From a virus (taxonomy: Duplodnaviria; Caudoviricetes), in the IMG/VR virus record IMGVR_UViG_2740891848_000001, positions 17,840 through 81,839 of that record: 64,000 nt of DNA; one strand, given 5' to 3'. The notes below the pieces were generated by a model. It saw nothing but the letters and a program-made list of their open reading frames with translations. It did no database searches and had not been told where the DNA came from. Shown piece after piece: positions 9,497 to 54,680 of the stretch. Position 1 is the first letter of the stretch, and every line of letters begins with the position of its first letter. The position numbers and the translations under genes are program-made.

Positions 9497-9534
9497 GATG
9501 TGGTGGTGATGATTTGTTAAGGACGAACGCATAG

Positions 9535-9603
9535 AGCGCGGGGCCAGCCGCGTTCACTACACGTTTTGAATGGGCGAAAAAACAGCGCGGGGCCAGCCGC
9601 GCT
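9535..9603. repeat. Two 18-bp direct repeats, each a GC hairpin with a GGCCAG/CTGGCC loop
   Basis: AGCGCGGGGCCAGCCGCG at 9535-9552 and 9584-9601, in the ardA leader. Confidence 0.85.
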
Positions 9604-9629
9604 GTGGAATTGGGTGCTGCGGGTGTTGC

Positions 9630-9857
9630 TTAGGCGCGAGCCATGTGCTCGCTTGCTTGGTGCTTCGCTGCCTGTTCATCCGCCGCAACTTGAGCAGCGA
9701 GACGGCGTTCGCGGTTCTTGAGAGCCACGACTCGCGCTTCCCAGTGCTCCTTCGAGGCCTCCGCATCGAGCCGTTCGAGCTGGCACTGCTTCAGTTGCGC
9801 CTTCGCCTCGCTTTGAGGGTTCTTAATAGGAAGAAAACTGGCCAGATAGTTCAGCAT
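9630..9857 (-). CDS. Hypothetical coiled-coil protein
   Basis: Start MLNYL with an AAAGGA RBS. Confidence 0.5.
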   Translation of the reverse strand: MLNYLASFLPIKNPQSEAKAQLKQCQLERLDAEASKEHWEARVVALKNRERRLAAQVAADEQAAKHQASEHMARA

Positions 9858-9929
9858 GATTGATCCTTTCATCTTGTGGTGGTGGTTGGTACTACGGGTG
9901 AAACTGACTTACACAGTGAAGCGTGGGGA

Positions 9930-10145
9930 TTAAAACCCCGCGTTATTGATTGACTTAATCTCGAAGCCGCATTCGCGCATCCAATCGAGCGCGACGTTGG
10001 CCCAGTCGCCGGTCCCCAGCTCCCAGCCGAACAACTCTTCCAGCTTCTCGATGGGCGTCATAGCCAAGATCGCGCGATCCTGGCTCATGTCGGTTTCGTC
10101 GAGGTTGCGTCTTTGACGCAGTGTCTGCAAAAGGTCCAGTCTCAT
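9930..10145 (-). CDS. Hypothetical phage protein
   Basis: 71-aa ORF with an ATGA overlap with the toxin gene. Confidence 0.55.
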   Translation of the reverse strand: MRLDLLQTLRQRRNLDETDMSQDRAILAMTPIEKLEELFGWELGTGDWANVALDWMRECGFEIKSINNAGF

Positions 10146-10426
10146 TGCCTCTCCTCTGCGGCGTCATAAACTTCGCCCCCTTGTCGTTTGCCGACCGCAA
10201 TGACCACAACGGTGATGATCTCGTCCTTCACCTGATAGACGAGCCGGTAGCCTCGGGTGCTGAGCTTGATCTTGTAGCAGTCTTTCATCCCGTGCAGCCT
10301 TGATGCTGGAACCTTCGGGTGTTCCAACCTCTCGGCGAGCTTCTTCGAGAACTGCTTCCGCGTGTCCGGATCGAGTTTGCGCCACTCTTTCTCGGCGTCG
10401 CGCAGGAACATCAGCTTATATGTCAT
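10142..10426 (-). CDS. relE: RelE/StbE-family toxin
   Basis: MTYKLMF..AEKEWRKLD...QFSKKL.ERL.HP....L.GM.DCYKIKL...GYRLVYQV.D..I.V.VIAVGKR. Confidence 0.9.
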   Translation of the reverse strand: MTYKLMFLRDAEKEWRKLDPDTRKQFSKKLAERLEHPKVPASRLHGMKDCYKIKLSTRGYRLVYQVKDEIITVVVIAVGKRQGGEVYDAAEERQ

Positions 10427-10661
10427 CCAGCTTGACCTCCACGGTCGGCTGACCCTCGCGCTGCCGCACGACCTCGGCCAGCTCGTAGTCTTCGAGTCGA
10501 TCGAGCAATGCCTCATACATCTCGGCCGGCAGCAGGTAGGCCACCGGCTTGTTGCGGTTGAGGATGGCGACCGCGCCACCCTCTGCGTTCTCTAGCACGG
10601 CTGTCGGGTTGAGCTTCAGCTCCGAAATGCCGACCGAGACGCGAGCAAGAATGGCTTCCAT
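10416..10661 (-). CDS. Phd/YefM-family antitoxin (StbD-like)
   Basis: SVGISELKLNP.AVL....VAILNRNKPVAYLL, immediately upstream of and overlapping the toxin. Confidence 0.88.
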   Translation of the reverse strand: MEAILARVSVGISELKLNPTAVLENAEGGAVAILNRNKPVAYLLPAEMYEALLDRLEDYELAEVVRQREGQPTVEVKLDDI

Positions 10662-10720
10662 GATGTGCCCCTTAAAAGATCATCTAAAAGACCTAATACT
10701 AGATCTCTTAAATGGCCACG

Positions 10721-11410
10721 TCAACTTTGATAAACCAGCTTGTCGTCGCCCAGATACAGGTCGCGCGACCCGGCGTTCTTGCTGGCCTCGGTCAGCGCGT
10801 CGCGGATCTCCTTCGGCAGCTCGCGGCGATCCCAGTATCCGCAGCCGTGGCCGGCGCGCGTGAGCCAGAAGTCGTGACCGGCGCGCTCGGCCGTGTAGCC
10901 GTTGATCTGCATCGCGGCGTGCAGCTGCGGTTCGGCGAAGTCGCAGAAGTCCTTGCAGTCCTCACGGAACTGGGCTTTCGTCTGCTCGGCCAGCTCGTAC
11001 TGGTCCAGCTCGACGCTCTTCTCCCCGCCCGTCTCCTTATCGTGGATGGTGTCCGTGCTCGACCAGAGCGCGGCTTCCTCGTAGCCCTGGACGAAGTCCT
11101 CGAACCACAGCTCGCGAGGGGTCTCGACGATGTCCACATTCGGGTACTCACCGCGGACGATTTCCAAGACCTCCCAGCGATCCTTGGCACGCAGGAAGAA
11201 CTCCACGTCGCCCTCGGATTCAACAGCCCGCCACAGCGGCTCTCCTGCGCCCCAATACGCGCCTCCCGCGTCGTAGTCGCCGTCGACGAACGGTAGATGC
11301 TGGACGACCAGCTTGATCGGTGCGTCCTGGTCGTCGGCATGCGTGTCGCGGCGACCCATCGGTGCTCCGCGTGCGCTGCCCACTTCGGCCAGTTTCATGC
11401 TAGTCGTCAT
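10721..11410 (-). CDS. Hypothetical phage protein, two-module (GGAYWG and GHDFWLTR.GHG.G.WDR motifs)
   Basis: Start MTTSMK; 229-aa ORF with phage-like codon usage. Confidence 0.65.
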   Translation of the reverse strand: MTTSMKLAEVGSARGAPMGRRDTHADDQDAPIKLVVQHLPFVDGDYDAGGAYWGAGEPLWRAVESEGDVEFFLRAKDRWEVLEIVRGEYPNVDIVETPRELWFEDFVQGYEEAALWSSTDTIHDKETGGEKSVELDQYELAEQTKAQFREDCKDFCDFAEPQLHAAMQINGYTAERAGHDFWLTRAGHGCGYWDRRELPKEIRDALTEASKNAGSRDLYLGDDKLVYQS

Positions 11411-11729
11411 GTCGTGCCTCCCGGATCGAGTTCGACTCGGCGAGATCTCCCCAGCAGCCAACCGTCATCGACAGGCCATGGAAGAGGATCGTGGTCGCGT
11501 AGGTATCGCCGGCATTGCAGTAGTACACGTCACAGCCTGTGCGGCGGTTCACGCCCAGGAACTCGACGCCGTGTGTTTCAATCAGGCGGTCGATCTGGCT
11601 ACGGGCTTCGCTGCGCCGTTGAACGGTCTTCCAAACCTCGCGCACTTTGGCAGCGATCTCGGGCGTCACGTCCTTGATTTCTTGCAGCCGCTTCGACGAA
11701 GCAGCGCGACGTTCAGAGAGCTGTACCAT
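11400..11729 (-). CDS. Hypothetical phage protein (Y.N.GDTY..T motif)
   Basis: 109-aa ORF coupled to both neighbours. Confidence 0.6.
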   Translation of the reverse strand: MVQLSERRAASSKRLQEIKDVTPEIAAKVREVWKTVQRRSEARSQIDRLIETHGVEFLGVNRRTGCDVYYCNAGDTYATTILFHGLSMTVGCWGDLAESNSIREARHDD

Positions 11730-12019
11730 TACTCTTCGTCCTCATCCTCGACGGGCACCAGGCGTTTGCCGGCGAAGTGGTCGTCGAGTGTCGCCTTGAC
11801 CTCCTTCGCCGCATCGCGCCATGCGAGCGCATTGATGAAACCGTTGTTGCCGATCTGCTCTACGGCCTGTTCGTCGGTTAGCGCGGCGACGACATCGGCG
11901 TGCTTTGCCAACGCATCCATGATGAAGAGCTGGACAATCGGTCCGCTCTTCGAGAATTCCATCAACTCGGCGATCGTCTCAGCGTTCGTCGCGTTACGCA
12001 TTTGTTGTTTCTTGGCCAT
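11729..12019 (-). CDS. Hypothetical phage protein
   Basis: 96-aa ORF with a CACCACCAC leader motif. Confidence 0.6.
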   Translation of the reverse strand: MAKKQQMRNATNAETIAELMEFSKSGPIVQLFIMDALAKHADVVAALTDEQAVEQIGNNGFINALAWRDAAKEVKATLDDHFAGKRLVPVEDEDEE

Positions 12020-12064
12020 GATTTACTCTGTGGTGGTGAGTGAATAACGTGCAGCTCTGCACTT

Positions 12065-12292
12065 TTAAAACAGTTGAATCTCCGCGCCGTGCAGCTTGTG
12101 GATCAGGCACTGCTGGGTGGCCCACTCCTCGGTTTCTTCGAGAGTTTCGATGCAGCGAGTGCGCGTCTCACGGCAGTAGTCGCGAACGACACCATCGTCA
12201 TTGCGGATCTTGAAGATCACCTGCCAGTTGGCGTTCTTCTTCCACTCGGACTTCAGGTCTTCTTCGTCGAAGCGGCGTGTGATTTCAGGCAT
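12065..12292 (-). CDS. Hypothetical phage protein
   Basis: Start MPEITRR with a GAGGAG RBS. Confidence 0.55.
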   Translation of the reverse strand: MPEITRRFDEEDLKSEWKKNANWQVIFKIRNDDGVVRDYCRETRTRCIETLEETEEWATQQCLIHKLHGAEIQLF

Positions 12293-12536
12293 GTGTTCGC
12301 TCCTCAATTGAAACGGTGAGACATTCGTCGTATTTGCCGCCGAGGTACGTGACAGCTCGTCCGCGTATGTACTTCGTACGGACACGCCACCAGCGGCTGT
12401 TCCACAGCACGACGAGGTAACCATCGTCTTGATCGTGTTCTGGCGGCACGCGGCGCACTCGAACAGACTGCGTGCAGAAGCTGTCGAAGGAAGTGCCGTC
12501 GAGCGTGCGGCACTTCGTGTGAACGTAGGCCTTCAC
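12285..12536 (-). CDS. Hypothetical phage protein
   Basis: 83-aa ORF overlapping both neighbours. Confidence 0.45.
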   Translation of the reverse strand: MKAYVHTKCRTLDGTSFDSFCTQSVRVRRVPPEHDQDDGYLVVLWNSRWWRVRTKYIRGRAVTYLGGKYDECLTVSIEERTHA

Positions 12537-13045
12537 TTTTCGTGCTCCCCGTTGAGCACCGCCCGCGAACGGTTCAGCAGCTCACGAGCCTCACTGTTCT
12601 TGGGTTCATCGCCGTCATAGATGTGCGTCGGGATGACATCCTCCCACTCGTCACACATTTCCTTCAGCGCCTTTTCGAGTTTCCAGATGCGGTAGCGCAG
12701 CTGCTCGTTCTTAGCGTCTTCGCATTCGAGCGTGTCCCGCACTTGCTCAGCGTCTTTGATCTCAAGGAACTCGTCCGAATAGACGCCCCCTCCGCGTAGG
12801 CGGCTAACGCGGTAGCGCGTCATCGCACCCTCCCGTTTCAGTGTCTCGATCACGAACGGGTGAGCATTTGCCAACGGGCGTACGAGCGAGGACTGAAACT
12901 TGCGCTCGCGGTCGTGCAACTCGATGATGTACTTCGCATCTTCTATGTTCAGGCCGGATGCGAGTGTCACATCGGTGTCGACAGCAACGATGCGGCTGTT
13001 GTCCCCACGCTCGATGTAGGTCCATTGTTGTTCTTGGCGGCTCAT
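12533..13045 (-). CDS. Hypothetical phage protein
   Basis: 170-aa ORF with a GGAGGAG RBS. Confidence 0.6.
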   Translation of the reverse strand: MSRQEQQWTYIERGDNSRIVAVDTDVTLASGLNIEDAKYIIELHDRERKFQSSLVRPLANAHPFVIETLKREGAMTRYRVSRLRGGGVYSDEFLEIKDAEQVRDTLECEDAKNEQLRYRIWKLEKALKEMCDEWEDVIPTHIYDGDEPKNSEARELLNRSRAVLNGEHEK

Positions 13046-13046
13046 G

Positions 13047-13367: not shown

Positions 13368-13795
13368 GCTTCCACCTTCGTTGCGATGTAGAACGGCGTT
13401 GTCAGATCGTTCGGCGCAACGAAGGCAGTCGGGATCGCACCCGACAGATACAGCTGCCCCTTCTTCGGGCAACGCATCGGCAGCTCGTCCCATTGCGCTA
13501 TGCCACCGCCTTCTGCGTGTACAGGCCTCGTGCTGATCGCTGGCCCGTTCTCGGTTTTGCGCGCGTGGCAGGCGTCAAGCGACTTCTGATACGCGGCCTG
13601 ATCGAAATACTGCACACCCGTCAAGTGCGCCAGCTGGTGGACGATCATCTGCACCGCGGGATCGCAGTTGATCTCGTCGGTCCCCTTGCCTTCATGCCGG
13701 CACTGCGCAATTGCGTTAACCAGCGCGGTGGAGATTGCAATCGGGTTGCACGCGCCTTGCTGAATCGCGGCGGCTTCGCGGAATCGGTTGTACAT
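13358..13795 (-). CDS. Hypothetical phage protein
   Basis: Start MYNRFRE. Confidence 0.55.
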   Translation of the reverse strand: MYNRFREAAAIQQGACNPIAISTALVNAIAQCRHEGKGTDEINCDPAVQMIVHQLAHLTGVQYFDQAAYQKSLDACHARKTENGPAISTRPVHAEGGGIAQWDELPMRCPKKGQLYLSGAIPTAFVAPNDLTTPFYIATKVEACA

Positions 13796-13797
13796 GG

Positions 13798-15100: not shown

Positions 15101-15145
15101 AATTTTTGTCCTATAACTTGGAGATCGAACCTTCAAGGAACGATC

Positions 15146-16823: not shown

Positions 16824-16938
16824 GTTGACCTTCTCCAGTAGGTCCAACGGTAGCCACGCTGCACGCGGTGGTGCAGCACGTTCGAGAACCCGCCGCAAGC
16901 GTAGAACTCGCGGCGAGTGATCCGTGTGTAGCCAGCCA

Positions 16939-17235: not shown

Positions 17236-17283
17236 GATTTGATCCTCAAAATGTGCAATGTCTGCACGTTGTGGTGGTGGGTG

Positions 17284-17912: not shown

Positions 17913-18175
17913 GCAGGCACCGCCTCAGTGATTGCGTATGTGTAGCGCGCCGAGCCGAGCTTGCCGTCCATTGTGATGACGATGCCGCACTGCGCGGAGA
18001 GACGGTTGATGAAGTCTTCGAAGCTGTGGAAGTTCCGCGTATCGACGTTCTCGACCATCATCTCTTCGAGCACGACATGAATCGCGGGGCCAGCGTAGGA
18101 AACTCTCTTCTTCATGTCAGCGAGCATGTCGCCGAAGAAGTGGAAGTATCCGATCGGGTTCGTGGTGGTGGACAC
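17909..18175 (-). CDS. Hypothetical phage protein
   Basis: 88-aa ORF, GTG start with an AAGGA RBS. Confidence 0.5.
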   Translation of the reverse strand: MSTTTNPIGYFHFFGDMLADMKKRVSYAGPAIHVVLEEMMVENVDTRNFHSFEDFINRLSAQCGIVITMDGKLGSARYTYAITEAVPA

Positions 18176-18210
18176 GAGTTTTGATCCTTGTAGAACGTGC
18201 AGTTCTGCAC

Positions 18211-19732: not shown

Positions 19733-19774
19733 GTGATTTATGTGGTGGTGATTAAGTGCAGAGCTGCACTATTC

Positions 19775-20167: not shown

Positions 20168-20332
20168 AACGTGTTTCCGTGGTGGTGGAAGTTTTGATCC
20201 TAGAAGCCTCATGGCGGGCCTCCGGGGACTACAGTGCTACGCTGGTATTGCCCAACCCCCACAAGCCTGCGGTGAGGGCTGTCATGCGGTCTGCGGCCAG
20301 GTGCAGACCTGCACATTCTGTTGCGTTTGCTG

Positions 20333-20755: not shown

Positions 20756-20766
20756 GTGTGGTGGTG

Positions 20767-21252
20767 AACTATCAGATAGTTGTGAGATTCGACCGCGCGG
20801 GCCAGCGCGCTGGGGTCAAAAACGGTGTGCGAATAGACTTTCGATTTTTACTTCTTAAGGACACTTATCTCTATCTGATAATTGACGTCCTCACTCGTGG
20901 ATCGACTTTGAAAGTCTATTCAACACCCCCTTCTCTTTTCTTGGGGGAAAGGGAAGGAAGAAAAAGAAGAAGAAGTAGGAAGCTAAGAGATTGATTTGAA
21001 GGGCGAAAAACGCCGCTTTCAGAACTATCTGATAGTTTGCGCACGGCGCGATGTTTTGCCCGTGGTCTGACACAACGAGCTTGTGGTCTCCAAGTGGGTT
21101 ATCACTGGGGCTGGAGCGCAACGGCGACTTATCCACAACTGCGGAGCCTCCCGGTTACGCGTTGGACACTCAACCCATAGGTGGAACAACGCTACCCCTC
21201 CACCGCACGCGACATCCACACGCTTCACTCGCCGCGCCAACTATCAGATAGT
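20767..21252. promoter_or_regulatory. Non-coding control region with AACTATC-W-GATAGTT palindromes
   Basis: Perfect copies at 20767-20781 and 21023-21037, near-perfect at 21239-21252, partial at 20871-20880. Purine tract at about 20941-20990. Confidence 0.65.
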
Positions 21253-21928: not shown

Positions 21929-22630
21929 TTAAGCCTTCAGGAGTTCCGGCGTAGCCGCCAGTTCAGCCAGTTCCGCATACATGGCCCGCGCATATTCGCG
22001 CCGTTGTCCTTCGGACAACATCTTGAGCATGGCGCGCGTCTGAAACACGAGATCGGAAACCGTGCCAAGCATCGCGCTCACCGATTCAACCGGGTCCGCG
22101 TTATCGGCTTGCTGCGGCTTGCTTACTTCTGGCTCGCTAGGCGTGCGTGGCGTGGCTTGCTTGGGCTTCTTTTCCGCTGTCGGTTTGCTGAAACCGAATT
22201 CAACAAAAAGCGCGTCCGTGCTATGACACTTAAGACCAAAGAGCCAAGCCTTAACTACTGCGGTTGCGTCCTTATCATCGTCCGCATTCAACACGTCAAG
22301 CATGTTGAGACCCTTTGCGGCCGCTTGCTTGCAGATACCAACAGCCTTTTCAACATAGCGCTTAGCCGTGCCCATGCAAGCATCCGAAAGCGTGGCGCGC
22401 GCTACTTCGTCCAATGCTTCCCACGCTTTCGCGCCTTCGCGCTGCGCCGCCAGCTCAAATGCGACCGGGCGAACGTTGTTAGCGGCAAAGCCACGCTCTG
22501 CAAACGAACCTTGGCGCAAGTAGACCGCGACCAATGCAGCATAAGCGCCGCCGACAACAGATTTTTCAGCGGAAACAATCGCCTTAACTGCGAACTTGAT
22601 TTGTTCAAGCGTCGGAGTGTTGATAGACAT
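21929..22630 (-). CDS. Hypothetical phage protein
   Basis: Start MSINTP with a GGAG RBS; first gene of the early arm. Confidence 0.55.
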   Translation of the reverse strand: MSINTPTLEQIKFAVKAIVSAEKSVVGGAYAALVAVYLRQGSFAERGFAANNVRPVAFELAAQREGAKAWEALDEVARATLSDACMGTAKRYVEKAVGICKQAAAKGLNMLDVLNADDDKDATAVVKAWLFGLKCHSTDALFVEFGFSKPTAEKKPKQATPRTPSEPEVSKPQQADNADPVESVSAMLGTVSDLVFQTRAMLKMLSEGQRREYARAMYAELAELAATPELLKA

Positions 22631-22958
22631 TGTAGAAACTCCAGTAATAAGCGCTTCATTGCGCCGATTAAGCCAGTATGAAAAGTGCAGCTCTGCACTT
22701 TCCTTCTCTTTGTCAAAAGTGCAGACGCTGCACTTTTGAACATTGCGGGCGCACGAATGCCGACCCGCAGCAGACCCATAGGTGGTGGTGGTCTGCTTCG
22801 CTCTCCCGTCAGGGATTAGTAACACTATACCTAGATATTATTGTGAGGGGAAGTGGCTGGATGCCGATTACGCCAAACCCATTAATTCTAAAATTTCAGA
22901 TTTTCCAACCTAGGTATAGTATTATTTAAAATATTCACCACAGATTCAGGAGCGGCAC

Positions 22959-23522
22959 TTGGCCAAAGAGAAGTTCACTAGGGAACAGTTCACTGTCGAG
23001 CTTGCGAAAGAGTGGTTTTCGTATGATACGAACGCAGGACTTGTTATCCGCATCAAGAATCCGACGCGTGGGCCTAAGACGGCCGGCACACGCGCTGGAG
23101 CGCTCCACAAGCCCAGTGGGATGCGCCAGGTCATCTTCCAAGGCGTGAGCGTCTACGAGCAGCAGCTGGTCTGGGCGCTAGTCACCGGCGAGTGGCCCGC
23201 AGGCAAGCTAAAGTTTAAGGACGGAGATCCGTTAAACACCCGTTTTGACAATCTATGCGCGGCGGCGAACACCGCGGAGAGTTACGAAGCATTACATTCT
23301 GGCACTGAGTTGGGGCAGACACCTCTCTCGGGAGTAGTTCCTACCTCAAGCGGGAAATTTAAGGCTCAAATTTTTCGCGAGTGGATGATCTATCTAGGAA
23401 CGTTTGAGACACCGGAGTTAGCTAGTGAAGCATACTTGCGGGCCAAGTCAGTCCTTCACTCTCCCCTGAACAGGGCCAAGTCGACACACGAACTCTTGGA
23501 AGAGCTATCAGAGTCTCCTTAA
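22959..23522 (+). CDS. HNH-like/AP2 DNA-binding protein (homing endonuclease-derived)
   Basis: WPAGKLKFKDGDPLNTRFDNL (degenerate HNH) plus AP2-like GKFKAQI...YLGTFETPELASEAY; TTG start with an AGGAG RBS. Confidence 0.75.
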   Translation: MAKEKFTREQFTVELAKEWFSYDTNAGLVIRIKNPTRGPKTAGTRAGALHKPSGMRQVIFQGVSVYEQQLVWALVTGEWPAGKLKFKDGDPLNTRFDNLCAAANTAESYEALHSGTELGQTPLSGVVPTSSGKFKAQIFREWMIYLGTFETPELASEAYLRAKSVLHSPLNRAKSTHELLEELSESP

Positions 23523-23577
23523 GAGTTCCTGATGCACCTTAGTATCATCTTGAATCACAAATTTGCAACTTGAAAGC

Positions 23578-23606
23578 TTGCAAAGGACTTTGGAGATGTT
23601 TATAGT
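23578..23606 (+). promoter_or_regulatory. Sigma70-type promoter
   Basis: TTGCAA (23578-83), 17-bp spacer, TATAGT (23601-06). Confidence 0.6.
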
Positions 23607-23609
23607 TCG

Positions 23610-23778
23610 GTCTCAAGTGCTGCGTGATCTGTGGTGGTGAGCGCAGCAGCTGAGACGCCAGTCTCAGTCATGACTTAGGGGTGGCCAGCTCCGAAGTCGA
23701 CCGTCCTAGACGGTAGTTTTGATCCATTGTAGAAGCTCAAAAAGCCCATCCGATTAGCTATCGAATGGGCTTTTTCCT
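23610..23778 (+). ncRNA. Putative structured small RNA, C4/CI-like antisense RNA candidate
   Basis: No ORF between the promoter and terminator. Hairpins: TGCTGCG/CGCAGCA (23618-48) around TCTGTGGTGGTGA; GACTT-a-GGGGT/GCTCC-g-AAGTC (23672-98) around GGCCA; ACCGTC/GACGGT (23700-14). Confidence 0.6.
23739..23775. terminator. Bidirectional rho-independent terminator
   Basis: AAAAAGCCCAT...ATGGGCTTTTT, between the sRNA and the convergent primase gene. Confidence 0.8.
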
Positions 23779-23869
23779 TTTCAACCTACGAATTGTCATT
23801 CAAGTGTGCGAACTGCTGTGTTTACATACAGTAGTCAGTAGTCGTTCTCTTTGTTGAACACTTGAACGT

Positions 23870-26389: not shown

Positions 26390-26943
26390 GCGTTCTCTTC
26401 TGTGGTGGTGTCAGTCGCGTCATCGTCAGCTGCTGCTGAACGGGCCAGGACGCTCCTAAGTCGATCCATAACGTCCGTACGCTGGTCAGGCGATAGGACT
26501 TCTTCCATGATCGTGAGTACGGTGTCCTGGAAGTCTTTGATCTGCTTGACTCCAAGCGCGCGCTCACGAGCATTAACAAGGCGTTCCAACAAACTGGTCG
26601 CGGTGCGGAAATACGCCATCCGCTCCGTTTGATCTGATGCCGCTATGCCCTTGCCGTAGTTCTTCAGCTCCGTAAAGACGCTGTGAAGGTCACTAGCAAG
26701 CGTGCTGTCAATTTCATCCTCGGAAACTGGGGTTGATGGAGGCTTTTGATCCTCTGTCGGCTTGTTCATCACTTGCCAACCCTGTCGGAATGAGACGACT
26801 TCATTGACGAACTGCTTCGTCTTCGGGTCGTACGGACATTCTGTGTCATTGAGGTATTCGCGGTCCTCGATAGTCAGCGTGACAGCAGTGTGCAACGCCC
26901 ATCCAACGAGGGCATCAATGTAGGGGTAGTGGCGTTCGCTCAT
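26386..26943 (-). CDS. Hypothetical helical protein
   Basis: Start MSERHYP; 4-nt overlap with the primase gene. Confidence 0.6.
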   Translation of the reverse strand: MSERHYPYIDALVGWALHTAVTLTIEDREYLNDTECPYDPKTKQFVNEVVSFRQGWQVMNKPTEDQKPPSTPVSEDEIDSTLASDLHSVFTELKNYGKGIAASDQTERMAYFRTATSLLERLVNARERALGVKQIKDFQDTVLTIMEEVLSPDQRTDVMDRLRSVLARSAAADDDATDTTTEENA

Positions 26944-27117
26944 GATTGATCCATTGAAGAAGTGCGAGAATATTCGGTTCCGCACATAAGGAAAATGAAA
27001 ATCAGCGGCACTATCAGATAAAAACGCACAACTATCGTCTGATTGCGAACATACATTTTTTCTTTGTGTTGTGTCGAAGCCTCACTGAGAATAGCGCCTG
27101 ATCCAAAGGTCTCCTCA

Positions 27118-32110: not shown

Positions 32111-32189
32111 GCCCTGTCCACCACCAGGGCTGTCAGTGACCGAAACGTAAGAAGAAGCTGCTGGACCCGTCCACCACCGGGGCCAGCAG
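32111..32189 (+). promoter_or_regulatory. Tandem leader hairpins with identical TCCACCAC loops
   Basis: GCCCTG-tccaccac-CAGGGC (32111-30) and CTGCTGG-a-CCCG-tccaccac-CGGG-g-CCAGCAG (32158-89). Confidence 0.65.
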
Positions 32190-33458: not shown

Positions 33459-33481
33459 CATTGAACTGACCACCACACATC

Positions 33482-34549: not shown

Positions 34550-35064
34550 TGTCCACGCTCCCGTCCCTCACGCGTGTCCTCGTCAACCTGACGCGCGGCA
34601 ACTCCAAGATCTGGGGCGTAGTGAACCTGCCGAAAGGCAGCGCTACCGGCGCCCTCGACTTCAGCCCCGTCGCGAAGATGCTGCTGACGCGGCGCGGTTC
34701 GGTCGCGCAGCCCGGCGACACGGTCCTCGACCTCGGCGAGCGGTACGTGCTCGGCTACTTCAGCTCCGGCGTGAACGATAGCCTCTTCCGAATGTTCCGC
34801 ACGCCATTCACCGGAACCGTCACGCGCATGTTGACCGGAAAAGACCCCGTGACTCAGCTCGAACGCACCGGTCGGCCGACCTCGGTCGGGCTTTGCTCCT
34901 ACGACATGCATACGAGCGGAGTCGCCGCCGACTTTGGTGACCACAAGCGGACCCGCTATCGTCTGATCACCGGCTTCGAGCTGGAGATCAACGACCTCAT
35001 CGGTCAGCTGAAGGTGACCAACGTGCGTCGCGAGCAAGGAATCACCGTCGCTGAGGCCGAGTAA
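34549..35064 (+). CDS. Putative head-closure protein
   Basis: Synteny; TAATG coupling. Confidence 0.4.
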   Translation: MSTLPSLTRVLVNLTRGNSKIWGVVNLPKGSATGALDFSPVAKMLLTRRGSVAQPGDTVLDLGERYVLGYFSSGVNDSLFRMFRTPFTGTVTRMLTGKDPVTQLERTGRPTSVGLCSYDMHTSGVAADFGDHKRTRYRLITGFELEINDLIGQLKVTNVRREQGITVAEAE

Positions 35065-35915
35065 TGCCCGCGCTCGATAAAACTTGGTCCGAGCTGGAAG
35101 CCTACGTCGAGAAGGTTTTCTTCTCGCAACTCACTGAGAAGACCGCCGGTTACGCAGACGACCTTGCGTTGCAGATCGAGAAAGACATCAACCGCGCGCT
35201 CAACACGTTCTTCAAAGACCTGGCCGGGATTATCCAGCCAGGTCTGACTGCGATTCCTGACGAACTGTCGACCTATTCAAACATGTCGTGGCCCGAGCTG
35301 AGCGAGCGGTACTACTACTGGAAGAACCCCGCGAACAAGGGTCGACTGAACGAGAGTAGCGACTTCTTCATGCTGAGTGAGTTGCCGCGCATCAAGCGCA
35401 ACTCGACGAAGTCAAAGCAGCAATGGCGACAAAAGCGCGTGAGGACCGTAGCTGATCTGCGCGCGAATCCCAGCCTCAGAATGCGGCTCGCGAAGCTGGC
35501 CAACCCTAGCGCCTACTACGGCGCGGTGGTGGTGATGATTGAATCGCACACGAAAATCAACCGAGGTGGTCGACGCCAATACAAGGCCGGCACGTTCAGA
35601 CAAGGCATGAACGTGGGTGGGCAGACGATCAAGAGCGCGAGTGACTACGTGACGATCGCAGTCAACTGGCTCCCAGCGATCAGCGGACTCGACCCGGATC
35701 AGCGCGGTGTCACCGAAAACCCACAACCACGCAACGGCGCGCAGAGTCTCCAGCAGTTACCCGCTGACGTGAAAGCGAAGCTGTTGAACCACGAACACAA
35801 CGCGCATGGGACGGCGTATCGTCCGCTGCTCGGCCCCTACATGCTCTGGTATCAGGACAACGTGATCCGAAGGATCGTCAAGTCCGCGATAGCACCTTTT
35901 GGACCAACAATATGA
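35064..35915 (+). CDS. Putative neck/tail completion protein
   Basis: Synteny; TAATG coupling. Confidence 0.35.
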   Translation: MPALDKTWSELEAYVEKVFFSQLTEKTAGYADDLALQIEKDINRALNTFFKDLAGIIQPGLTAIPDELSTYSNMSWPELSERYYYWKNPANKGRLNESSDFFMLSELPRIKRNSTKSKQQWRQKRVRTVADLRANPSLRMRLAKLANPSAYYGAVVVMIESHTKINRGGRRQYKAGTFRQGMNVGGQTIKSASDYVTIAVNWLPAISGLDPDQRGVTENPQPRNGAQSLQQLPADVKAKLLNHEHNAHGTAYRPLLGPYMLWYQDNVIRRIVKSAIAPFGPTI

Positions 35916-37502: not shown

Positions 37503-37519
37503 ATTGGATCACCACCACC

Positions 37520-44200: not shown

Positions 44201-44258
44201 CATCATGCGCGGCGGAACGACGAAACAACTGATCAAGCAAGTGGCAATGGGTGCTTAA
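38247..44258 (+). CDS. Tape measure protein with an internal lytic transglycosylase (SLT) domain
   Basis: 2003 aa, Ala/Gln-rich helical, TMP core. SLT motifs QAESRG...GAMGVAQ...ALAAYNWGQGNV at about 41990-42410. Confidence 0.92.
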   Translation: MANQEQVKNFEVGLGPTEDTLRQFSQLKDVLGVIYNQLTKVKAAAAEIQIGGVGARGPNDPALSQQLAALQAELRTLLGSVRSGGPNAQLNSAIISGQQQQKQFSDGRLDLESARVANAQAERRVMLAKQENIAAEAKRQYAAEEIGMTREIEQVTLRVAAAQRSLTQARLEEDRVAEATSKRTIRDSQQRLQQIRDELELRERGAKVRLGNTLDAGGDASAAQTQLKAVQDARAALSGSIRNAAGAIRLAEGEANRALTQRTAPVNTAQNAAVREDRRRDYEKELAAADVGPPVDLYYKELQRQSKAREAAAAQARKEEQAAFDRTQNLIRPAQYEDVKRQQEAERLAAQIGPPVDLFYKELQRKVAQLEAASQKAAREAQAIFNRQQSLIRPAQLEDQRRQAEAEQLAAQIGPPIELFYKELQKRNAEMQRTIAKAEEERKKQEEAFNRAGAKIGPDRATLLRLRDQQMAKEQQQQESNSDTRQRRHDLTLGDGGASIAMTQAALTTNYFVTQGIVNAFKSAIQFTVEYEEALAHLKTIAGATEGQMSSLEGTIEGVSNITRYGAVDLTKAAAALSETGVTVGQMGVALKGVADLATATGEDFNKTVDTVTGALGAFKLSATDTVDITNMIAQAVNSSRLTMDKLKTSIETAGETASEAGVSFKEMLAANVAITNTGTASGATLGGGLRSLLTDLEKPSDKFKATLERVGLTEDDINVKTQGLYGAMSNLHDAGFDAADAMQSFDARAASAYTALSGNLKAFAEFETGLNSTDAAARANADQMKTLGAQYDRFKNQTSLLVGEGFKPLLDGFKEVVSITADAETGIRNMSGVVETAGTVLGGTAIALGTQYVGKLGGGLVGLATGGFAAAEGMAAIGASLGLWVGVAAAAAAGVAYLINRLGDSKKAFEEQMTAVNTAKDTLTESKQAYDSVGTTIETLTSKMDALNKHPEMLKREIDDVGKQFEKYGEQLDKSVIQKTEDLITVLKKLHDQLGQKYELNTVMLGQQLDLMTVQAQQKVQETNSQFGRNAFNGPMNAIDRVRPARSGEYVEGTVGGLLESDSQFNILPNGRRSKGFADLGTGLTSDNIDSFVKLLGDVGVKDLDKITAGFKAALNPNATADVGNDPEKAQAYLNLLAQANTGLTAAQINLGQQRNAVGTDDATKQRIDALVQIFGNAANELKKSVEAGQTLAGNLSQKKVTAADVANIQYENSNPGALARRAGVEQVIQRSVAMRTTGLSSNRGIDDIWAAQIQAESRGQQFDANGNVLTSSKGAMGVAQVRLPTGPEAARLANEKWDENKFRNDASYNEKLGKAYMSHMLDLYGGNNTLALAAYNWGQGNVNNLLAQKNKDGTTNDFRILSNNLTETDFIDKLPKETRNYIARIGGSGAGNLGRFDRLNSSIEVASQVRDLNDLVQSLTAQRDASKGNAPETASVEKQLVAAKNELAAWEKRFDDARVSAAPALKKASSADEAALNAHIKALNGQIGNSRDIDEVKAINDQADKTIEAVYGRKIDTLRSISPRVKTADGTLDYTSEVRQQIESLQNERDEKIKAQDEAVKKHIESIKDALDKAELKKNLEAEAQQFKDEMSDLKNRQAAESTTHSISLKQAEQPLKNDQAQASYMSDPRYSARFSQVQRTALSFQTAADTDLKDQATLAEDRRHQLQLQAEEEQARSAFSRTGSKLTDRQDALAKSSDDKEQARIQQQINQLLDEQRSQEEKVTAASDKRKKNAETILELEEKIKSKNAQPMSLMDGINAANSNFMQQHDLMANAIDGYNSMLGTAQNSFAQFFDSIATGSRTAGQAIGDFARSFLKAMLQILEQQAALAAVKAIISAFGGAFGSSGQAAGTTSGTNAYGFTMPAGSIQGGSVSTTGLVTRSGGISRFIGGGSVPGSITTRDSVNAFLRPGEYVMNKDATDMVGTDFLDGLNSKGNRMISKSTPAPLPKRDTKPSFTNVWVVAPDQKPQMGPSDVVAIMSDDIMRGGTTKQLIKQVAMGA

Positions 44259-44653
44259 TGACCGCGACACTACCTACCTTTGACTTCCCGAACCACATGG
44301 TTCGGGAAACCTACCCAGATCCGGGGACAACCATCCAACTGGGGAACTCGTATCGCTTTGCGACGCCACCAACGGCTCCGGATCAGCGTGTCTTCACGTT
44401 GAGCTTCCAGTCAATGTGGCGCGGCATCAAAGCGGACGGCACGATTGACACCACCACCTTCTCGGAGAACAACGCAGGTCGTCTCCTGGTGTTTTACGAA
44501 GCCCACAAGCTACACAAGACCTTCCAGTACCAACACAACTGGTTGGGTCTGCTCAACGTTCGCTTCGACAAGCCGCTTGATCTGCCTAACCCGATTAAGG
44601 GCGGCGACGGCTGGACCGAAGACTTCTCAGTCGAATTCATCGAGATGCCATGA
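44258..44653 (+). CDS. Distal/minor tail protein (lambda M-like)
   Basis: Follows the tape measure gene; VFYEAHKLHKTF pattern. Confidence 0.6.
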   Translation: MTATLPTFDFPNHMVRETYPDPGTTIQLGNSYRFATPPTAPDQRVFTLSFQSMWRGIKADGTIDTTTFSENNAGRLLVFYEAHKLHKTFQYQHNWLGLLNVRFDKPLDLPNPIKGGDGWTEDFSVEFIEMP

Positions 44654-50165: not shown

Positions 50166-50166
50166 T

Positions 50167-50628: not shown

Positions 50629-50637
50629 AACTCCTTT

Positions 50638-50688
50638 GGCGCGCTGGCCCGCGCCCGTAAAATTCGGATAGCGAAAGGACACCACCAC
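50638..50688 (+). promoter_or_regulatory. Leader with a CTGGCC-loop hairpin followed by CACCACCAC
   Basis: GGCGCG-ctggcc-CGCGCC (50638-55), AAGGA SD, CACCACCAC (50680-88), ATG at 50690. Confidence 0.65.
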
Positions 50689-50689
50689 G

Positions 50690-52135
50690 ATGCAAGAATT
50701 TCAGCAGATACCAGACAGTCAGCGGATCTCCGACTCGCTCGCGCCGCTGCTAAACAACGACCTCACCGCGATCTCGCGGAATGCTGGCCAAGCGTACCCG
50801 ACCACTGGCCTGGTCGTGGGCATGCCGTATCTCAGCACGCAAGAAAACAAGCTCTACCGGCTGGCCAGCCTGTCTCCGATCACTTGGACTCTGGAGCTGG
50901 ACTTTAATCGCGCGATGGCATATGCGGATGATGTAGCTGCTGCGGTGGCGAACGCCAATGGGCGCGTGTCCCGTGGCGGCGACACAATGACTGGCTACCT
51001 CACACTCAACGGCGATCCGACGCAGGCACTGCACGCGGCACCGAAGCGCTACGTGGACGCGCAGCGCGACGCGGCGATCGCTATCGCCAACCTGGCGATG
51101 CAGCGGTCGGGCGGCACGATGACCGGCCCGCTGCTGCTTTCCTCGGACCCGACGCAGCCAGCGCAGGCCTCGACGAAGAACTACACCGACTACCTCTACA
51201 ACGCGCTGAATAACGCGAAGTTGAACCGCAGCGGCGACACGCTCGGAGAGGTTTACAACAACGGCTGGTATCGCTCGAATGGAGCGGTGGGCTGGTTCAA
51301 CCAGACCTACGGCGGCGGCATCTTCATGCAGAACTCCGGCTACGTGTCGGTCTATGGCGGCAAGGGCTTCTCGACCGACACTCACACGCTGGAGCAAGGG
51401 ACTGGTGGGATCTGGACTTCACGCTATGGGTGGCTGGAGAACCGCTTCGCGGCAAAGGACGCAGAGGGGGCGCTTACCTCGGTCGGGACAGTAGACAAAG
51501 CCGGTGGCAACGTCTCGTGGCCTGCCGGCTTCTACCTACAGCAGAGCGGCCGACAGGTCCAGCTGGTCCGGACCTCGACCAACTGCAACTGCAACTGCGC
51601 CTGCACCTGTTTCCCGGCTGGCACGCGGATCATGATGGCCGACCGCTCCTGGAAGAACGTCGAGGACATCGTCGTCGGCGACGTGCTGATGACGCCGCTC
51701 GGCCCCGAATCCGTGCTCGATGTCGAGACGCCAAAACTAGGCGACCGCTGGATGGTTGGCTTCGAAGACGAGCCCTTCCGCTGGACCGACGACCACGCCT
51801 TCTGGACGCGCCGACACGGCGAGCAGGGGCTGGGTGTCTACGACAAGGAGTCGTGGCTGAACGGTGTGCACGCAGGCGTGGTCAAGGGGCTTCCCGACAA
51901 TGATGACGTTCGTCTTTTGGACGACCGCTCGGACGAATTCGCGCACATCTCCGGTTGGAAGCGTAAGACGCTGGCTCGCTTCCCCTACCCGTCACAGACG
52001 CCAGTCTACCTGCCGATCGTCGGCGGTTGCCACATGATCATCGCGGAAGGCTACGTGGTCTCGGCCGGTGCGGACGGCTTCGATTTCGACTACAGCACCT
52101 TCAACTGGGAGGGTTTGAAAGATGCTGCTGCATAA
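50690..52135 (+). CDS. Tail fibre with a Cys-rich NCNCNCACT motif and a C-terminal Hint domain
   Basis: xGDTMTGxL fibre repeats and a PilV/fibre-like NGWYRSNG..GW.N..YGGG segment. Hint block A CFPAGT (Cys307, nt 51608), block B WTDDH, block F-like VYLPIV.GCHMIIAEGYVV. Confidence 0.8.
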   Translation: MQEFQQIPDSQRISDSLAPLLNNDLTAISRNAGQAYPTTGLVVGMPYLSTQENKLYRLASLSPITWTLELDFNRAMAYADDVAAAVANANGRVSRGGDTMTGYLTLNGDPTQALHAAPKRYVDAQRDAAIAIANLAMQRSGGTMTGPLLLSSDPTQPAQASTKNYTDYLYNALNNAKLNRSGDTLGEVYNNGWYRSNGAVGWFNQTYGGGIFMQNSGYVSVYGGKGFSTDTHTLEQGTGGIWTSRYGWLENRFAAKDAEGALTSVGTVDKAGGNVSWPAGFYLQQSGRQVQLVRTSTNCNCNCACTCFPAGTRIMMADRSWKNVEDIVVGDVLMTPLGPESVLDVETPKLGDRWMVGFEDEPFRWTDDHAFWTRRHGEQGLGVYDKESWLNGVHAGVVKGLPDNDDVRLLDDRSDEFAHISGWKRKTLARFPYPSQTPVYLPIVGGCHMIIAEGYVVSAGADGFDFDYSTFNWEGLKDAAA

Positions 52136-52826
52136 GTCCCTGATCCCCGCCACTCTCGCGGGAGATGATCTGAAGAAAGTCGGCGCGGTAGCCACCGCGA
52201 TTGCGACGCCCACCGGCTTCGTGGTCAGCTGCAAGGAACTGTCGCTCTACTGGCAGTTCGACTTGCAGAAAGTCGAGTTCGGGCTCGATGTCTTGCATCT
52301 GGTAAAGAGCCGCACGGGTCAGTACGTGCCGGTCTGGGGTAGCGATCTTCACGAGTCGAAGGATAGCTGGTCGAGCTGCATGTTCCGCAAGAACCTCGAC
52401 TCATTCCAGCCTGTTTGCATCGTCGGGGTTGCCGCCGACAAGAAGAGCTTCACCGTGGTCTTCTTCGTCAACACGCAAGAACCGAACAACCCGACGCCGC
52501 AGGAGGATAGCTCCACGGATTCGGGTGACATGCTGCTAAAGCGCGTGATGCCCGAGCTGGCTCCGACCATCGACCGCTGGCACGCGAAGCACAAGCTGCT
52601 GAAGGACACGAAGACGAACGACTCCCTCGCCGCGCTCGAAGCACAAGTGGATCTACTCACGCAGTGGGTCTCCGCGTTGATCCCCGACGAGTACCGCCAG
52701 AAACTCCTTGACGCTGGTGTGCTGAAACTGAAGGATACGAAGATCGTTGTCGATGACGTGGTCGCGTTCAAAACCGCGCTCCGCGCGCGGCAGGAAACCT
52801 ACCTCACCACCACAGAGCAGCAATGA
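52122..52826 (+). CDS. Hypothetical protein coupled to the fibre and radical SAM genes
   Basis: 234 aa; overlaps the fibre stop (14 nt) and the rSAM start (ATGA). Confidence 0.7.
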   Translation: MLLHKSLIPATLAGDDLKKVGAVATAIATPTGFVVSCKELSLYWQFDLQKVEFGLDVLHLVKSRTGQYVPVWGSDLHESKDSWSSCMFRKNLDSFQPVCIVGVAADKKSFTVVFFVNTQEPNNPTPQEDSSTDSGDMLLKRVMPELAPTIDRWHAKHKLLKDTKTNDSLAALEAQVDLLTQWVSALIPDEYRQKLLDAGVLKLKDTKIVVDDVVAFKTALRARQETYLTTTEQQ

Positions 52827-54172
52827 CCTCGTTCGTTCTGAAAGCGCTCGACGCCGCTGGCGTCGAGCGTAGTTTTTTGTACAACAACATGTCGAGCCAA
52901 TTGACGGACGCGAGCACTGGCCGCTCGCTCATGTCAAAGACCGGCGACCACCCGTACGTGCCTGCCAAGCCCCCCGGCCGCAAGGACGCGATCATCCGCA
53001 CCCTGAAGATCCAACTGGGCCTCTCGTGCAACTACAGCTGCGAATACTGCTCGCAGCGCTTCGTACCGCACGGCGAGCAAACCGGCCCTTACTCCGTCGA
53101 TCACTTCATGTCGCGCCTGACATGGTCTGCCAGCCTCGCTGACGACGCGACGGTCGAGTTCTGGGGTGGCGAGCCGCTGGTCTACTGGAAGACGCTCGTG
53201 CCGCTCGTAGACGCGCTCCGGATGCGCTACCCTGCCCTTACCCTCAAGATGATCACGAACGGCTCCCTGCTCGACCAGAATAGGATCGCGTGGCTGATCA
53301 CGAATGGATTCCAGATTGGCCTCTCACACGATGGTCCCGGCCAGAATACGCGCGGCCCTGACCCGCTCGACGATCCGCTCGCGCGCGAGGCGATCCTGAC
53401 GCTGTACCAGCGTCTGGCGCCGTTGGGTCGCATGTCGTTCAACACCATGCTGCACAAGGACAACCGGTCGCGCGCGGCGGCGCAGAAGTTCTTCATTGAG
53501 CTGACCGGCGACCCGAACGTGCCGATCGGCGAAGGCATGATGATCGACGCCTACGACGAGGGCGGCAAAGGCATGTCGATGGACAACCTGGCCGATCACA
53601 TCGTCTACCGCAAGCAAGCCTTCGAAGAGCTGCGCCGCGGCGACGCGATCAACTTCACGAGCGTGACTGAGAAGATCCACGATTTCGCACGCTCGGTCGA
53701 GACGAGCCGACCCGGCATTGCAGTTGGCCAGAAGTGCGGCTCCGATCGCGGCGACAGCCTGACGGTCACGCTCAACGGCGACGTGCTGACGTGCCAGAAC
53801 GTATCGACCGTTTCCGTCGCGCCAAACGGCAAGAGCCACCGCGCCGGCTCGCTCGAAAACATCGACGCGGTGCGCGTCGAATCGTCACGTCACTGGTCAA
53901 CCCGCAAAGACTGTTCGAGCTGCCCGGTCGTGCAGCTCTGCAAAGGCTCCTGCATGTTTCTTGAGAACGATCTCTGGGACGTGACCTGTGAGAGCGCCTA
54001 CAGCGACAACGTGGTGTTCTTGGCCACCGCCTTGTTCGAGCTGACTGGCTGCAGCCTGAGAACCATCGAGCCGATGACTGGCGAGTTGCCCGAGCACCGC
54101 CGCAACGTCTTCGGCCCTATCACCAACACGCGGTCCACCACCCGCAAACCTATCTGGATCAAACAGCAATGA
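52823..54172 (+). CDS. Radical SAM enzyme with a SPASM domain
   Basis: CNYSCEYC (CxxxCxxC), FWGGEPL, ITNGSLL, SHDG. SPASM cysteines KCG...TCQ...CSSCPVVQLCKGSC...C. Confidence 0.93.
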   Translation: MTSFVLKALDAAGVERSFLYNNMSSQLTDASTGRSLMSKTGDHPYVPAKPPGRKDAIIRTLKIQLGLSCNYSCEYCSQRFVPHGEQTGPYSVDHFMSRLTWSASLADDATVEFWGGEPLVYWKTLVPLVDALRMRYPALTLKMITNGSLLDQNRIAWLITNGFQIGLSHDGPGQNTRGPDPLDDPLAREAILTLYQRLAPLGRMSFNTMLHKDNRSRAAAQKFFIELTGDPNVPIGEGMMIDAYDEGGKGMSMDNLADHIVYRKQAFEELRRGDAINFTSVTEKIHDFARSVETSRPGIAVGQKCGSDRGDSLTVTLNGDVLTCQNVSTVSVAPNGKSHRAGSLENIDAVRVESSRHWSTRKDCSSCPVVQLCKGSCMFLENDLWDVTCESAYSDNVVFLATALFELTGCSLRTIEPMTGELPEHRRNVFGPITNTRSTTRKPIWIKQQ

Positions 54173-54546
54173 ACGAAGCCCCACAACCCCTCGACGCCCA
54201 GCCGCTGATCGACGCGCTGACGCGCCAACGTAACGAGCAAATGGACCGCGTCGCACACGCGGAGGCCGCGCTGTTCACCACGCAGCAGGCTCTTCAAACC
54301 GCGCTCGCTTCGAGCGCGAAGGTTCAGTCGATGCTCGACGACACGCTGGTCGCAATGCAACAACAGCAGGATCTGAATGAACTGAACAAGATTGAGCAAG
54401 AGCGCGCGACCGTTGGCCTGCGCGAGCAGGTCAAGAACCTCCAAGACCAACTCGCCGCGCACCAGGCTGTGCCGGCGACCGCACCGAGCGGCATCGTGAT
54501 CCCGCCGCTCGGCACGCTGCCCGAAGCCAACGCGATTACCGCCTGA
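54169..54546 (+). CDS. Gln-rich coiled-coil protein
   Basis: 125 aa with an ATGA overlap with the rSAM gene. Confidence 0.65.
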   Translation: MNEAPQPLDAQPLIDALTRQRNEQMDRVAHAEAALFTTQQALQTALASSAKVQSMLDDTLVAMQQQQDLNELNKIEQERATVGLREQVKNLQDQLAAHQAVPATAPSGIVIPPLGTLPEANAITA

Positions 54547-54572
54547 TACCACTCTGGTTCAGAGTAGTTCAC

Positions 54573-54598
54573 AAGGGAACCCACGCGGTTCCCTTTTC
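54573..54598 (+). terminator. Rho-independent terminator
   Basis: AAGGGAACC-cacgc-GGTTCCCTTTT closes the fibre/rSAM operon. Confidence 0.75.
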
Positions 54599-54680
54599 GT
54601 TTGCTGTGCGAAGAAACTCTTTGTATTGAGTTTTCACGGCCAATAAAATTTCGGCACTCACCACCACCACAGAGTGCTTC

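Follow-up and report, generated by a model that had tools for sequence, protein, structure and literature searches.

The 64,000-nucleotide (nt) stretch analysed here, called the window throughout, comprises bases 17840–81839 of the 81,839-bp IMG/VR virus record IMGVR_UViG_2740891848_000001 and has a G+C content of 58.7%. The phage is a siphophage resembling Achromobacter phage JWF in type, with which it shares about 71% nucleotide identity from terminase to capsid, and in the window the nine-base word CACCACCAC, referred to below as the motif, recurs at translation starts alongside a predicted small RNA (sRNA) gene with a complementary loop. Minus-strand genes up to 26985 are early and replication genes, and plus-strand genes from 27043 encode terminase, head, tail and lysis functions. 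A tyrosine integrase is encoded in the left arm of the phage, which is therefore temperate. A close relative, with an 82% identical primase, lies within a 290-kb contig of Burkholderia paludis MSh1, and the host is thus most likely Burkholderia. Genes were called with our own codon-score picker of open reading frames (ORFs) and start codons were read manually; some starts are uncertain, above all those of small ORFs.

The window holds 20 matches to the motif in 19 runs, compared with 0.62 ± 0.85 in dinucleotide shuffles (largest value, 4). Over the whole 81.8-kb genome the motif is the commonest of all 9-mers, with 27 matches in 24 non-overlapping runs. Twenty-one of these runs have the mRNA-sense orientation, 17 lie 1–36 nt upstream of a start codon, and two more fall within the first ten codons (Table 1). 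Spacing to the start is mostly 1–3 or 9–15 nt and is 35 nt in one run. The remaining five runs comprise two internal sense copies, an antisense copy opposite Val-Val-Val, one copy within an IS21-family insertion and one at 23631. The motif changes strand with gene orientation, being on the minus strand up to 26410 and on the plus strand from 37510. Its flanks are nearly free of information: a T or a C stands at −1, where G never occurs, and A-G-A is favoured at +1 to +3. The motif is thus a free-standing short word, not a piece of a longer promoter or repeat, and a longer promoter or mobile repeat was rejected on this ground. It is also predicted to be unpaired, with a median probability of 0.11 versus 0.001 for control leader positions, and is displayed in hairpin loops twice, at 22782 and in 8-nt CCACCAC loops such as one near 32171. 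Run length ranges from (CAC)3 to (CAC)16. The longest run, on the minus strand of relative G004 (L032, 69464–69511), stands upstream of the orthologue of window gene 9630–9857 and indicates that the motif can expand like a microsatellite.

Intergenic DNA contains 14 copies where per-segment composition shuffles predict 0.10, and sense coding DNA contains ten where synonymous-codon shuffling gives 2.0 (largest value, 5 in 100 shuffles); an artefact of Thr codons or of C/A composition is thereby ruled out. The B. paludis genome carries 139 copies; the 80-kb prophage accounts for 30 of them and the remaining 8.5 Mb for 109, a density difference of about 29-fold. An ATG follows within 14 nt of 12 of the 30 prophage copies and 17 of the 109 host copies, chance being about 17% by our own rough estimate, which is not a computed control. 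Because host copies are sparse and are followed by an ATG about as often as this estimate, a general feature of host leaders is also ruled out. Collectively, codon shuffles, composition shuffles and host counts indicate that neither codon bias nor C/A-rich leaders nor host usage accounts for the motif. These were the objections anticipated in a preliminary description of this DNA, which had listed 13 perfect 9-mers and an 8-mer, ACCACCAC, at 33469. All are present at the coordinates and on the strands it gave, and the window holds further copies at 5586, 6879, 18162, 23631, 35526 and 44449. Its assertion that copies always occupy the sense strand is close to correct, failing only at 35526 (antisense), 6879 (antisense in istA) and 23631 (the complement of the sRNA loop). 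The genome-wide occurrence it described extends to the 17.8 kb left of the window, where we found seven further matches (five runs, four of them 1–15 nt before starts). Its view that the element is read in RNA agrees with a strand that tracks gene orientation and a position at translation starts.

The copy at 23631 is kept in every member of the motif-rich clade, about 195–256 nt downstream of the primase stop and in non-coding DNA, where it marks the predicted sRNA gene. Bases 23631–23639 of the plus strand are the exact complement of CACCACCAC, and the whole loop of the first hairpin (HP1), UGAUCUGUGGUGGUGAG, is the exact complement of CUCACCACCACAGAUCA; this loop includes the stretch GUGGUGGUG. 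An alignment of the sRNA from 11 relatives shows a mean identity of 63–66%, with invariant blocks, the loop sequences included, alternating with covarying stems, among them the 7–8-bp stem of HP1. Four helices were defined with RNAalifold and explicit pair counting. Their 34 pairs are 94% paired versus 38–53% when partners are slid, and 17 pairs show double-sided changes versus 1–6 when slid; the observed values were reached in none of 500 shuffles. All 11 sequences fold better on the plus strand (sum −795 versus −649 kcal/mol), and the consensus pairs include 38 G.U versus 3 C.A. The plus strand of the window, opposite the motif-bearing mRNAs, is thus the one that carries the structure. Folding of the 180-nt stretch 23613–23792 gives a z score of −4.9. 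Promoter hexamers (TTGCNN or TTTACC, then TAnnnT) are kept in 11 of 11 phages with a spacer of exactly 17 nt in each, and the spacer sequence drifts. The sRNA is single-copy in the phage. No Rfam family reaches its gathering score in the window, and 23540–23820 holds only chance-level matches (E values of 2.3 and 3.9). Directly upstream of the sRNA promoter and on the same strand is an HNH endonuclease gene (22959–23522; HNH_3, 8e-08); at the matching place JWF has two endonuclease genes and no sRNA.

To link motif and sRNA, the complement of every sRNA 7-mer was counted in the sense-strand leader windows of five genomes. In each of the five, the strongest leader excess falls on the HP1 loop, with 15–31 observed and about 1 expected. 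The next maps to the single-stranded GUUUUGAUCC stretch in four, with G004 as the exception. An unbiased count of leader 7-mers yields the same top motifs, but not in JWF. Complementarity to the HP1 loop is perfect over 9 nt and extends to up to 15 nt in total, and it exceeds chance beyond the 9-mer in G000, G001 and G004. Predicted duplexes of −21 kcal/mol or better are found in 14 of 89 leaders versus none of 400 internal sense controls. The arrangement resembles that of sRNA targets generally: the partner sequence is conserved and unpaired, most sites fall in initiation regions (about −35 to +15), and the promoter, covarying structure and terminator predict a separate transcription unit. 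For the third invariant loop, GCTGGCCAC, no genomic enrichment of the complement was seen.

The second leader word, GGATCAA, occurs 11 times in G000 leaders versus 0.49 expected. It stands 2–7 nt upstream of many starts, including that of the major capsid gene (9860, 17239, 18181, 19628, 20194, 26946, 32212, 54156 and others), and is enriched in leaders of G000, G001 and G002, more weakly in G007, and not in G004 or JWF. It is complementary to GUUUUGAUCC of the sRNA and probably serves as a weak AGGA-type Shine-Dalgarno (SD) sequence with an A-rich spacer. GC-rich hairpins with a CTGGCC loop, complementary to GGCCAG in the invariant HP3 loop, were seen at 9538, 20795 and 50639, about 40 nt upstream of three motif copies; they are too few for statistics.

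Motif and sRNA share their distribution. The sRNA is carried by 11 relatives. Ten of these are whole records, with primases 78–92% identical, that contain 14–30 motif matches each and show the same strand switch; the eleventh (L018) is a 41-kb fragment and was left out of the motif counts. Relatives without the sRNA have few matches: four in JWF, six in Achromobacter phage 2-1, three each in Caulobacter phage Seuss and Xylophilus phage Lumi, and one in the distant G009. A covariance model did not find the sRNA in JWF or in L019, which is part of G009, and outside coding-like contexts the loop word is absent, both exactly and with one mismatch, from phage 2-1, Seuss, Lumi, JWF and G009. Across 95 Burkholderia species genomes the model found the sRNA in one, namely in the MSh1 prophage. 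Of the two regulators proposed in the preliminary description, the sRNA at 23610 has emerged as a conserved, covarying RNA gene on the plus strand whose invariant loop perfectly complements the motif, present in the 11 motif-rich relatives and absent from five motif-poor ones; the other, the KTSC protein, found no support, for reasons given below. JWF has a leader module of its own on its minus strand (L005; 68991, 75016 and 77574), a hairpin GGTTCGTAACGAACC followed by TTCAAGGAT(C/G)AATCATG, which indicates that sister lineages carry different start-associated repeats.

In relatives about 70–80% identical, orthologous leaders keep the motif in some cases and have SD-like words instead in others. 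At the primase site, 12 of the 16 loci aligned from the sRNA clade retain the motif. Here the reading frame was inspected for HHH in some relatives, and TTT was found in the same frame in all those checked except L012 (PTTP), so that selection on nucleotides and on protein could not be discriminated. The endolysin site is kept in G001, G007 and G002, and JWF has CCGGAG in its place. ArdA orthologues of G007 and G004 have AAGGAAGG or GGGAACAGG where the motif stands, and tail-chaperone orthologues without it have AGGGAA, GAGGA or AAGGAT. At 12030 the extended form CTCACCACCACAGAG gives 14–15 nt of complementarity to the sRNA loop. The ORF at 22402–22779 is doubtful, and the copy at 22782 more likely belongs to the 5′ leader of a gene that begins at 22630.

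Table 1. Motif copies and sRNA elements in the window (positions are those of the window; distance is counted to the start codon).
Feature	Position	Strand	Distance (nt)	Remarks
Motif	5586..5594	-	Inside first 10 codons	Codons 8-10 (MMDDKQATTT) of 94-amino-acid ORF 5330-5614
Antisense copy	6879..6887	-		Inside IS21-family istA; incidental
Motif	9500..9508	-	3	ArdA ATG 9496 (ArdA, 1.3e-29); no SD between
Motif	9876..9884	-	3	ATG 9872; also 18 nt upstream of ATG 9857, GGATCAA between
Motif (CTCACCACCACAGAG)	12030..12038	-	10	ATG 12019 (96 amino acids, phrog_7895); GTGCAG-N3-CTGCAC palindrome at 12049
Motif	17271..17279	-	35	ATG 17235 (98 amino acids, MTTTTV); then GTGCA..TGCAC hairpin and GGATCAA
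Motif	18162..18170	-	Inside first 10 codons	Codons 2-5 (VSTTTN) of 88-amino-acid ORF from GTG 18175; GGATCAA precedes start
Motif	19742..19750	-	9	ATG 19732 (36-amino-acid ORF); palindrome at 19756 before motif
Motif	20179..20187	-	11	ATG 20167 (130 amino acids); GGATCAA before motif
Motif	20758..20766	-	2	ATG 20755 (140 amino acids); CTATCTGATAG palindrome and CTGGCC-loop hairpin before motif
Motif	22782..22790	-	1-3	Loop of GCAGAC/GTCTGC hairpin in early leader, ~150 nt upstream of gene starting 22630
sRNA promoter	23578..23606	+		TTGCAA, 17 nt, TATAGT; sigma-70 type
Predicted sRNA, ~170 nt	23613..23780	+		Promoter, covarying hairpins, terminator
sRNA helix HP1	23618-23648	+
HP1 loop UGAUCUGUGGUGGUGAG	23625..23641	+		17 nt, invariant
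sRNA helix HP2	23649-23668	+
sRNA helix HP3	23672-23698	+
HP3 loop GGUGGCCAGC	in 23672-23698	+		Invariant
sRNA helix HP4	23700-23714	+
Single-stranded GUUUUGAUCC	23716-23725	+		Invariant, unpaired; complement of GGAUCAAAAC
Terminator hairpin	23739-23775	+		Strong; U run after
Motif	26402..26410	-	12	Primase ATG 26389; in last codons (TTT) of upstream gene
8-mer ACCACCAC	33469..33476	+	5	ATG 33482; 12 nt after terminator hairpin
Antisense copy	35526..35534	-		Val-Val-Val in plus-strand gene 35064-35915; probably incidental
Motif	37510..37518	+	1	Tail-chaperone ATG 37520; ~13 nt after terminator
Motif	44449..44457	+		Internal sense copy in 131-amino-acid gene 44258-44653; not start-linked
Motif	50680..50688	+	1-3	Fills spacer from conserved GGA to ATG 50690 of Hint-domain tail fibre
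Motif (CTCACCACCACAGAG)	52805..52813	+	9	Radical-SAM ATG 52823; in 3′ end of upstream gene
(CAC)4	54659..54670	+	10	Endolysin ATG 54681

With somewhat better than even confidence, we read the motif as the seed-match site of a trans-acting sRNA encoded by the phage, with a regulon at translation initiation regions. The sRNA would be made from its sigma-70 promoter and ended at the intrinsic terminator, its first hairpin displaying the loop UGAUCUGUGGUGGUGAG. mRNAs with (Y)CACCACCAC(AGA) in an accessible, G-poor leader would pair with this loop over 9–15 bp, at about −19 to −29 kcal/mol. The duplex would lie inside the 30S binding window, either 1–36 nt ahead of the AUG or within the first codons. 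Since it would fall within the 30S footprint, occlusion of the ribosome binding site would be the most likely and simplest outcome. This would jointly repress translation of about 17–20 phage genes, those for ArdA, ligase, MazG, primase, tail chaperone, Hint fibre, a radical-SAM enzyme, endolysin and several small early proteins. The second invariant unpaired stretch, GUUUUGAUCC, would be available to the SD-like GGAUCAA of other leaders. We infer that motif and sRNA pair in vivo and that the direction of regulation is repression; activation is possible. Joint silencing, as the preliminary description suggested, is plausible. Given a temperate phage and a promoter of constitutive appearance, possible roles of the sRNA are to curb leaky lytic expression during lysogeny, to time expression once infection has begun, or to keep out related superinfecting phages.

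Several observations weigh against an sRNA regulon. The sRNA is itself a predicted molecule, and part of its seed could be hidden by a predicted 3-bp inner helix (AUC/GGU), which is invariant. In G002 and G007, complementarity beyond the 9-mer does not exceed chance. The position of the motif (−1 to −36, or inside an ORF) and its run length are both loose. The phages that carry the sRNA form one clade, so that the co-occurrence of motif and sRNA amounts to about a single evolutionary event. Homologues with a different loop were sought without success: a pattern scan of IMG/VR returned at least 80 loci, and the true homologues among the matches listed share the same loop; in the 95 Burkholderia genomes the covariance model found the known prophage only and no sRNA with a changed loop. 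Predicted targets span early, replication, tail and lysis genes and not one functional class, and why these should answer to one repressor is not obvious. Lastly, the alternation of motif and SD-like words among orthologous leaders fits a ribosome-loading role in cis at least as well.

Such a role constitutes the foremost alternative, in which the motif is an autonomous translation element, a G-free, unstructured, C/A-rich pad or SD surrogate that loads the 30S subunit (e.g., via protein S1), with complementarity to the sRNA being secondary or a means of tuning. The motif indeed sits where orthologous leaders of ArdA, tail chaperone and endolysin carry AGGA/GGAG-type SDs, and several motif leaders with 1–3-nt spacing have no SD at all. 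The variable run length and the predicted accessibility of the motif suit a pad of this kind, and Martin-Farmer and Janssen reportedly found in 1999 that CA repeats near start codons raise translation in Escherichia coli. Lack of structure, however, requires no exact word, whereas what is enriched is an exact 9-mer, 20–30 times, with free flanks. Host genes do not use it, and sister phages of Achromobacter, Caulobacter and Xylophilus manage without it. A cis element would also leave unexplained the invariant complementary loop in a co-inherited RNA gene. We regard it as rather unlikely, and the cis and sRNA ideas are not mutually exclusive.

A less probable alternative is that the motif is the operator of a phage or host RNA-binding protein, a RegA-like repressor or an activator, such as the KTSC protein. 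Position at start codons and strict strand specificity match T4 RegA-type operators, KH and cold-shock domains typically bind YCAY-like repeats, and two copies are displayed in hairpin loops. The KTSC protein (4808–5146), however, has an orthologue in JWF, where the motif is not enriched; it is thus not co-distributed with the motif and is not supported as its reader. No RNA-binding domain was found among ten clade-specific small proteins, which have no Pfam domain and whose PHROG matches carry no RNA-binding annotation. The rarity of host copies and their lack of linkage to starts argue against a host factor with its own regulon.

We are equally reluctant to accept a further reinterpretation, in which leaders and sRNA form a phage-private initiation code that mimics the ribosome and acts as a ribosome-redistributing switch, or as clade-wide RNA immunity against superinfecting relatives, and not as a simple repressor. 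Taken together, the leader elements GGAUCA(A) and CACCACC are similar to the 3′ tail of 16S, GGAUCACCUCC, and the sRNA, through its loop GGUGGUGA and the stretch UGAUCC, looks like an extended SD, GGAGGUGAUCC. Given this likeness, the sRNA could bind either the 30S anti-SD or phage leaders. Predicted duplexes are −10.9 kcal/mol for the sRNA loop with the 16S tail, −7.8 for an AAGGAG SD, and −21 to −27 for the sRNA with leaders.

It is very improbable that the motif works at the DNA level, whether as a promoter element, as a transcription-factor site or as an analogue of polar Chi or KOPS words with a gene-following strand bias. GT-rich polar octamers such as Chi are known, and the strand switch coincides with the direction of transcription and probably of replication; but the flanks are random with no conserved −35/−10 context, the tight clustering 1–12 nt before starts is unexpected for Chi- or KOPS-like words, and the likely operators of this phage are separate palindromes. 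Furthermore, copies 10–15 nt after terminator hairpins (33469, 37510) or in the last codons of an upstream gene (26402, 52805) leave no room for a promoter and tie the motif to the start codon. Unusual SD pairing is ruled out, since Burkholderia 16S rRNA ends in the canonical anti-SD GGAUCACCUCCUUUCC and offers the motif no complement of 7 nt or more (the longest in the entire 16S molecule, 6 nt, falls in internal helices), the motif is like the tail (CACCUCC) rather than complementary to it, and the spacings of 1–3, 9–12 and 35 nt, with two copies inside ORFs, do not conform to the fixed 5–10 nt or so of an SD.

Other features of the genome were noted in passing. Ten GTGCAG-N2-4-CTGCAC palindromes lie in the early region only (12049, 14884, 18197, 18691, 19756, 20301, 21251, 21720, 22685 and 22719). 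They are often flanked by AAA...TTT, several stand 10–30 nt upstream of the motif, and they may be operators or small bidirectional hairpins. A second palindrome, (A)CTATCWGATAG(T), occurs at 20769, 21025 and 21241, with degenerate copies near 20880 and 26990–27030. These sites, in the non-coding early control region and the divergent region between primase operon and terminase, are probably operators of a dimeric regulator. The non-coding DNA upstream of the first early genes (about 20935–21010, minus strand) contains a polypyrimidine tract of about 45 nt and then a purine-rich stretch, and a tRNA-Gly(GCC) gene lies in the early region at 13420–13513 (minus strand). The IS21-family insertion (5805–8136, plus strand) sits within the minus-strand early cluster, is missing from all relatives compared and may explain the classification of the record as a provirus; it comprises istA (5805–7343, Mu-transposase C-terminal domain) and istB (7276–8136; IstB_IS21, 4.5e-87). 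The left arm (L127, genome 1–17839) holds lysogeny and cargo DNA: the tyrosine integrase (domains Arm-DNA-binding and Phage_integrase), a protein with a Schlafen/AlbA_2 domain and a candidate ParA-like ATPase recognised by eye, these features lying at 692–2020 (plus), 3910–5085 (minus) and about 2650–3680 (minus). By tblastn against the five genomes compared, the integrase matched only in G001 and G002, and the Schlafen/AlbA_2 ORF had no match.

Among known systems, the closest mechanisms are found in temperate phages, in the antisense c4 RNA of P1 and P7 and the CI RNA of P4. These small structured phage RNAs use exposed sequences to pair at or near ribosome binding sites on phage mRNAs, shutting off lytic functions. 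For c4 and CI the targets are confined to a single operon, at one or two sites, whereas the sites here number about 20 and are dispersed over both strands and over early and late operons; the present sRNA, moreover, matches neither C4 nor any other Rfam family. A base-pairing sRNA of phage lambda, LPR1/PreS, also acts on translation initiation, in its case reportedly regulating host genes and enhancing dnaN translation (bioRxiv 10.1101/2024.10.31.621285). Phage sRNAs of this kind mainly target host genes, whereas the targets predicted here are the phage's own, with one repeated seed match. Signals spread phage-wide over many mRNA initiation regions are familiar from T4, in the RegA operator and the RegB cleavage sites; they are read by proteins, and RegB targets the SD sequence GGAG. 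The present motif, unlike these signals, is not an SD, and no such protein was found here among the ten clade-specific proteins and KTSC.

The closest description is that of the start-associated sequence (SAS), a short asymmetric repeat of cluster K mycobacteriophages that occurs in 11–19 copies per genome, in one orientation and a few nt before starts (Pope et al. 2011, PMC3203893). SAS is virtually absent from the host and clade-specific, about half of its copies have an inverted repeat just upstream (ESAS), and its authors left open whether an RNA or a protein, of host or phage, binds it (PMC3203893). Copy number, orientation, position at starts, rarity in the host and upstream inverted repeats are all shared with CACCACCAC, the GTGCAG-N3-CTGCAC palindromes before several motif copies being comparable to the inverted repeats of ESAS. 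SAS itself, GGGATAGGAGCCC, contains the SD core, is confined to the non-structural arm and keeps a fixed spacing of 3–7 bp (PMC3203893). The motif described here, in contrast, lacks an SD core or GGAG, has no sequence likeness to SAS, is more loosely spaced, and also precedes tail-chaperone, fibre and endolysin genes. It further differs in having a complementary RNA partner, none being known for SAS. Start-associated repeats of phages have been known since 2011, and to our knowledge none has had its reader identified. In the present case a repeat of this type is matched with an explicit, conserved and complementary RNA partner, which makes the proposed pairing directly testable. If the pairing is true, no larger self-directed sRNA regulon would be on record for a phage, with one seed serving about 20 translation starts. 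It would mean that the leaders of a phage can be wired for global control at the post-transcriptional level, and would supply a compact, portable RNA switch for phage engineering.

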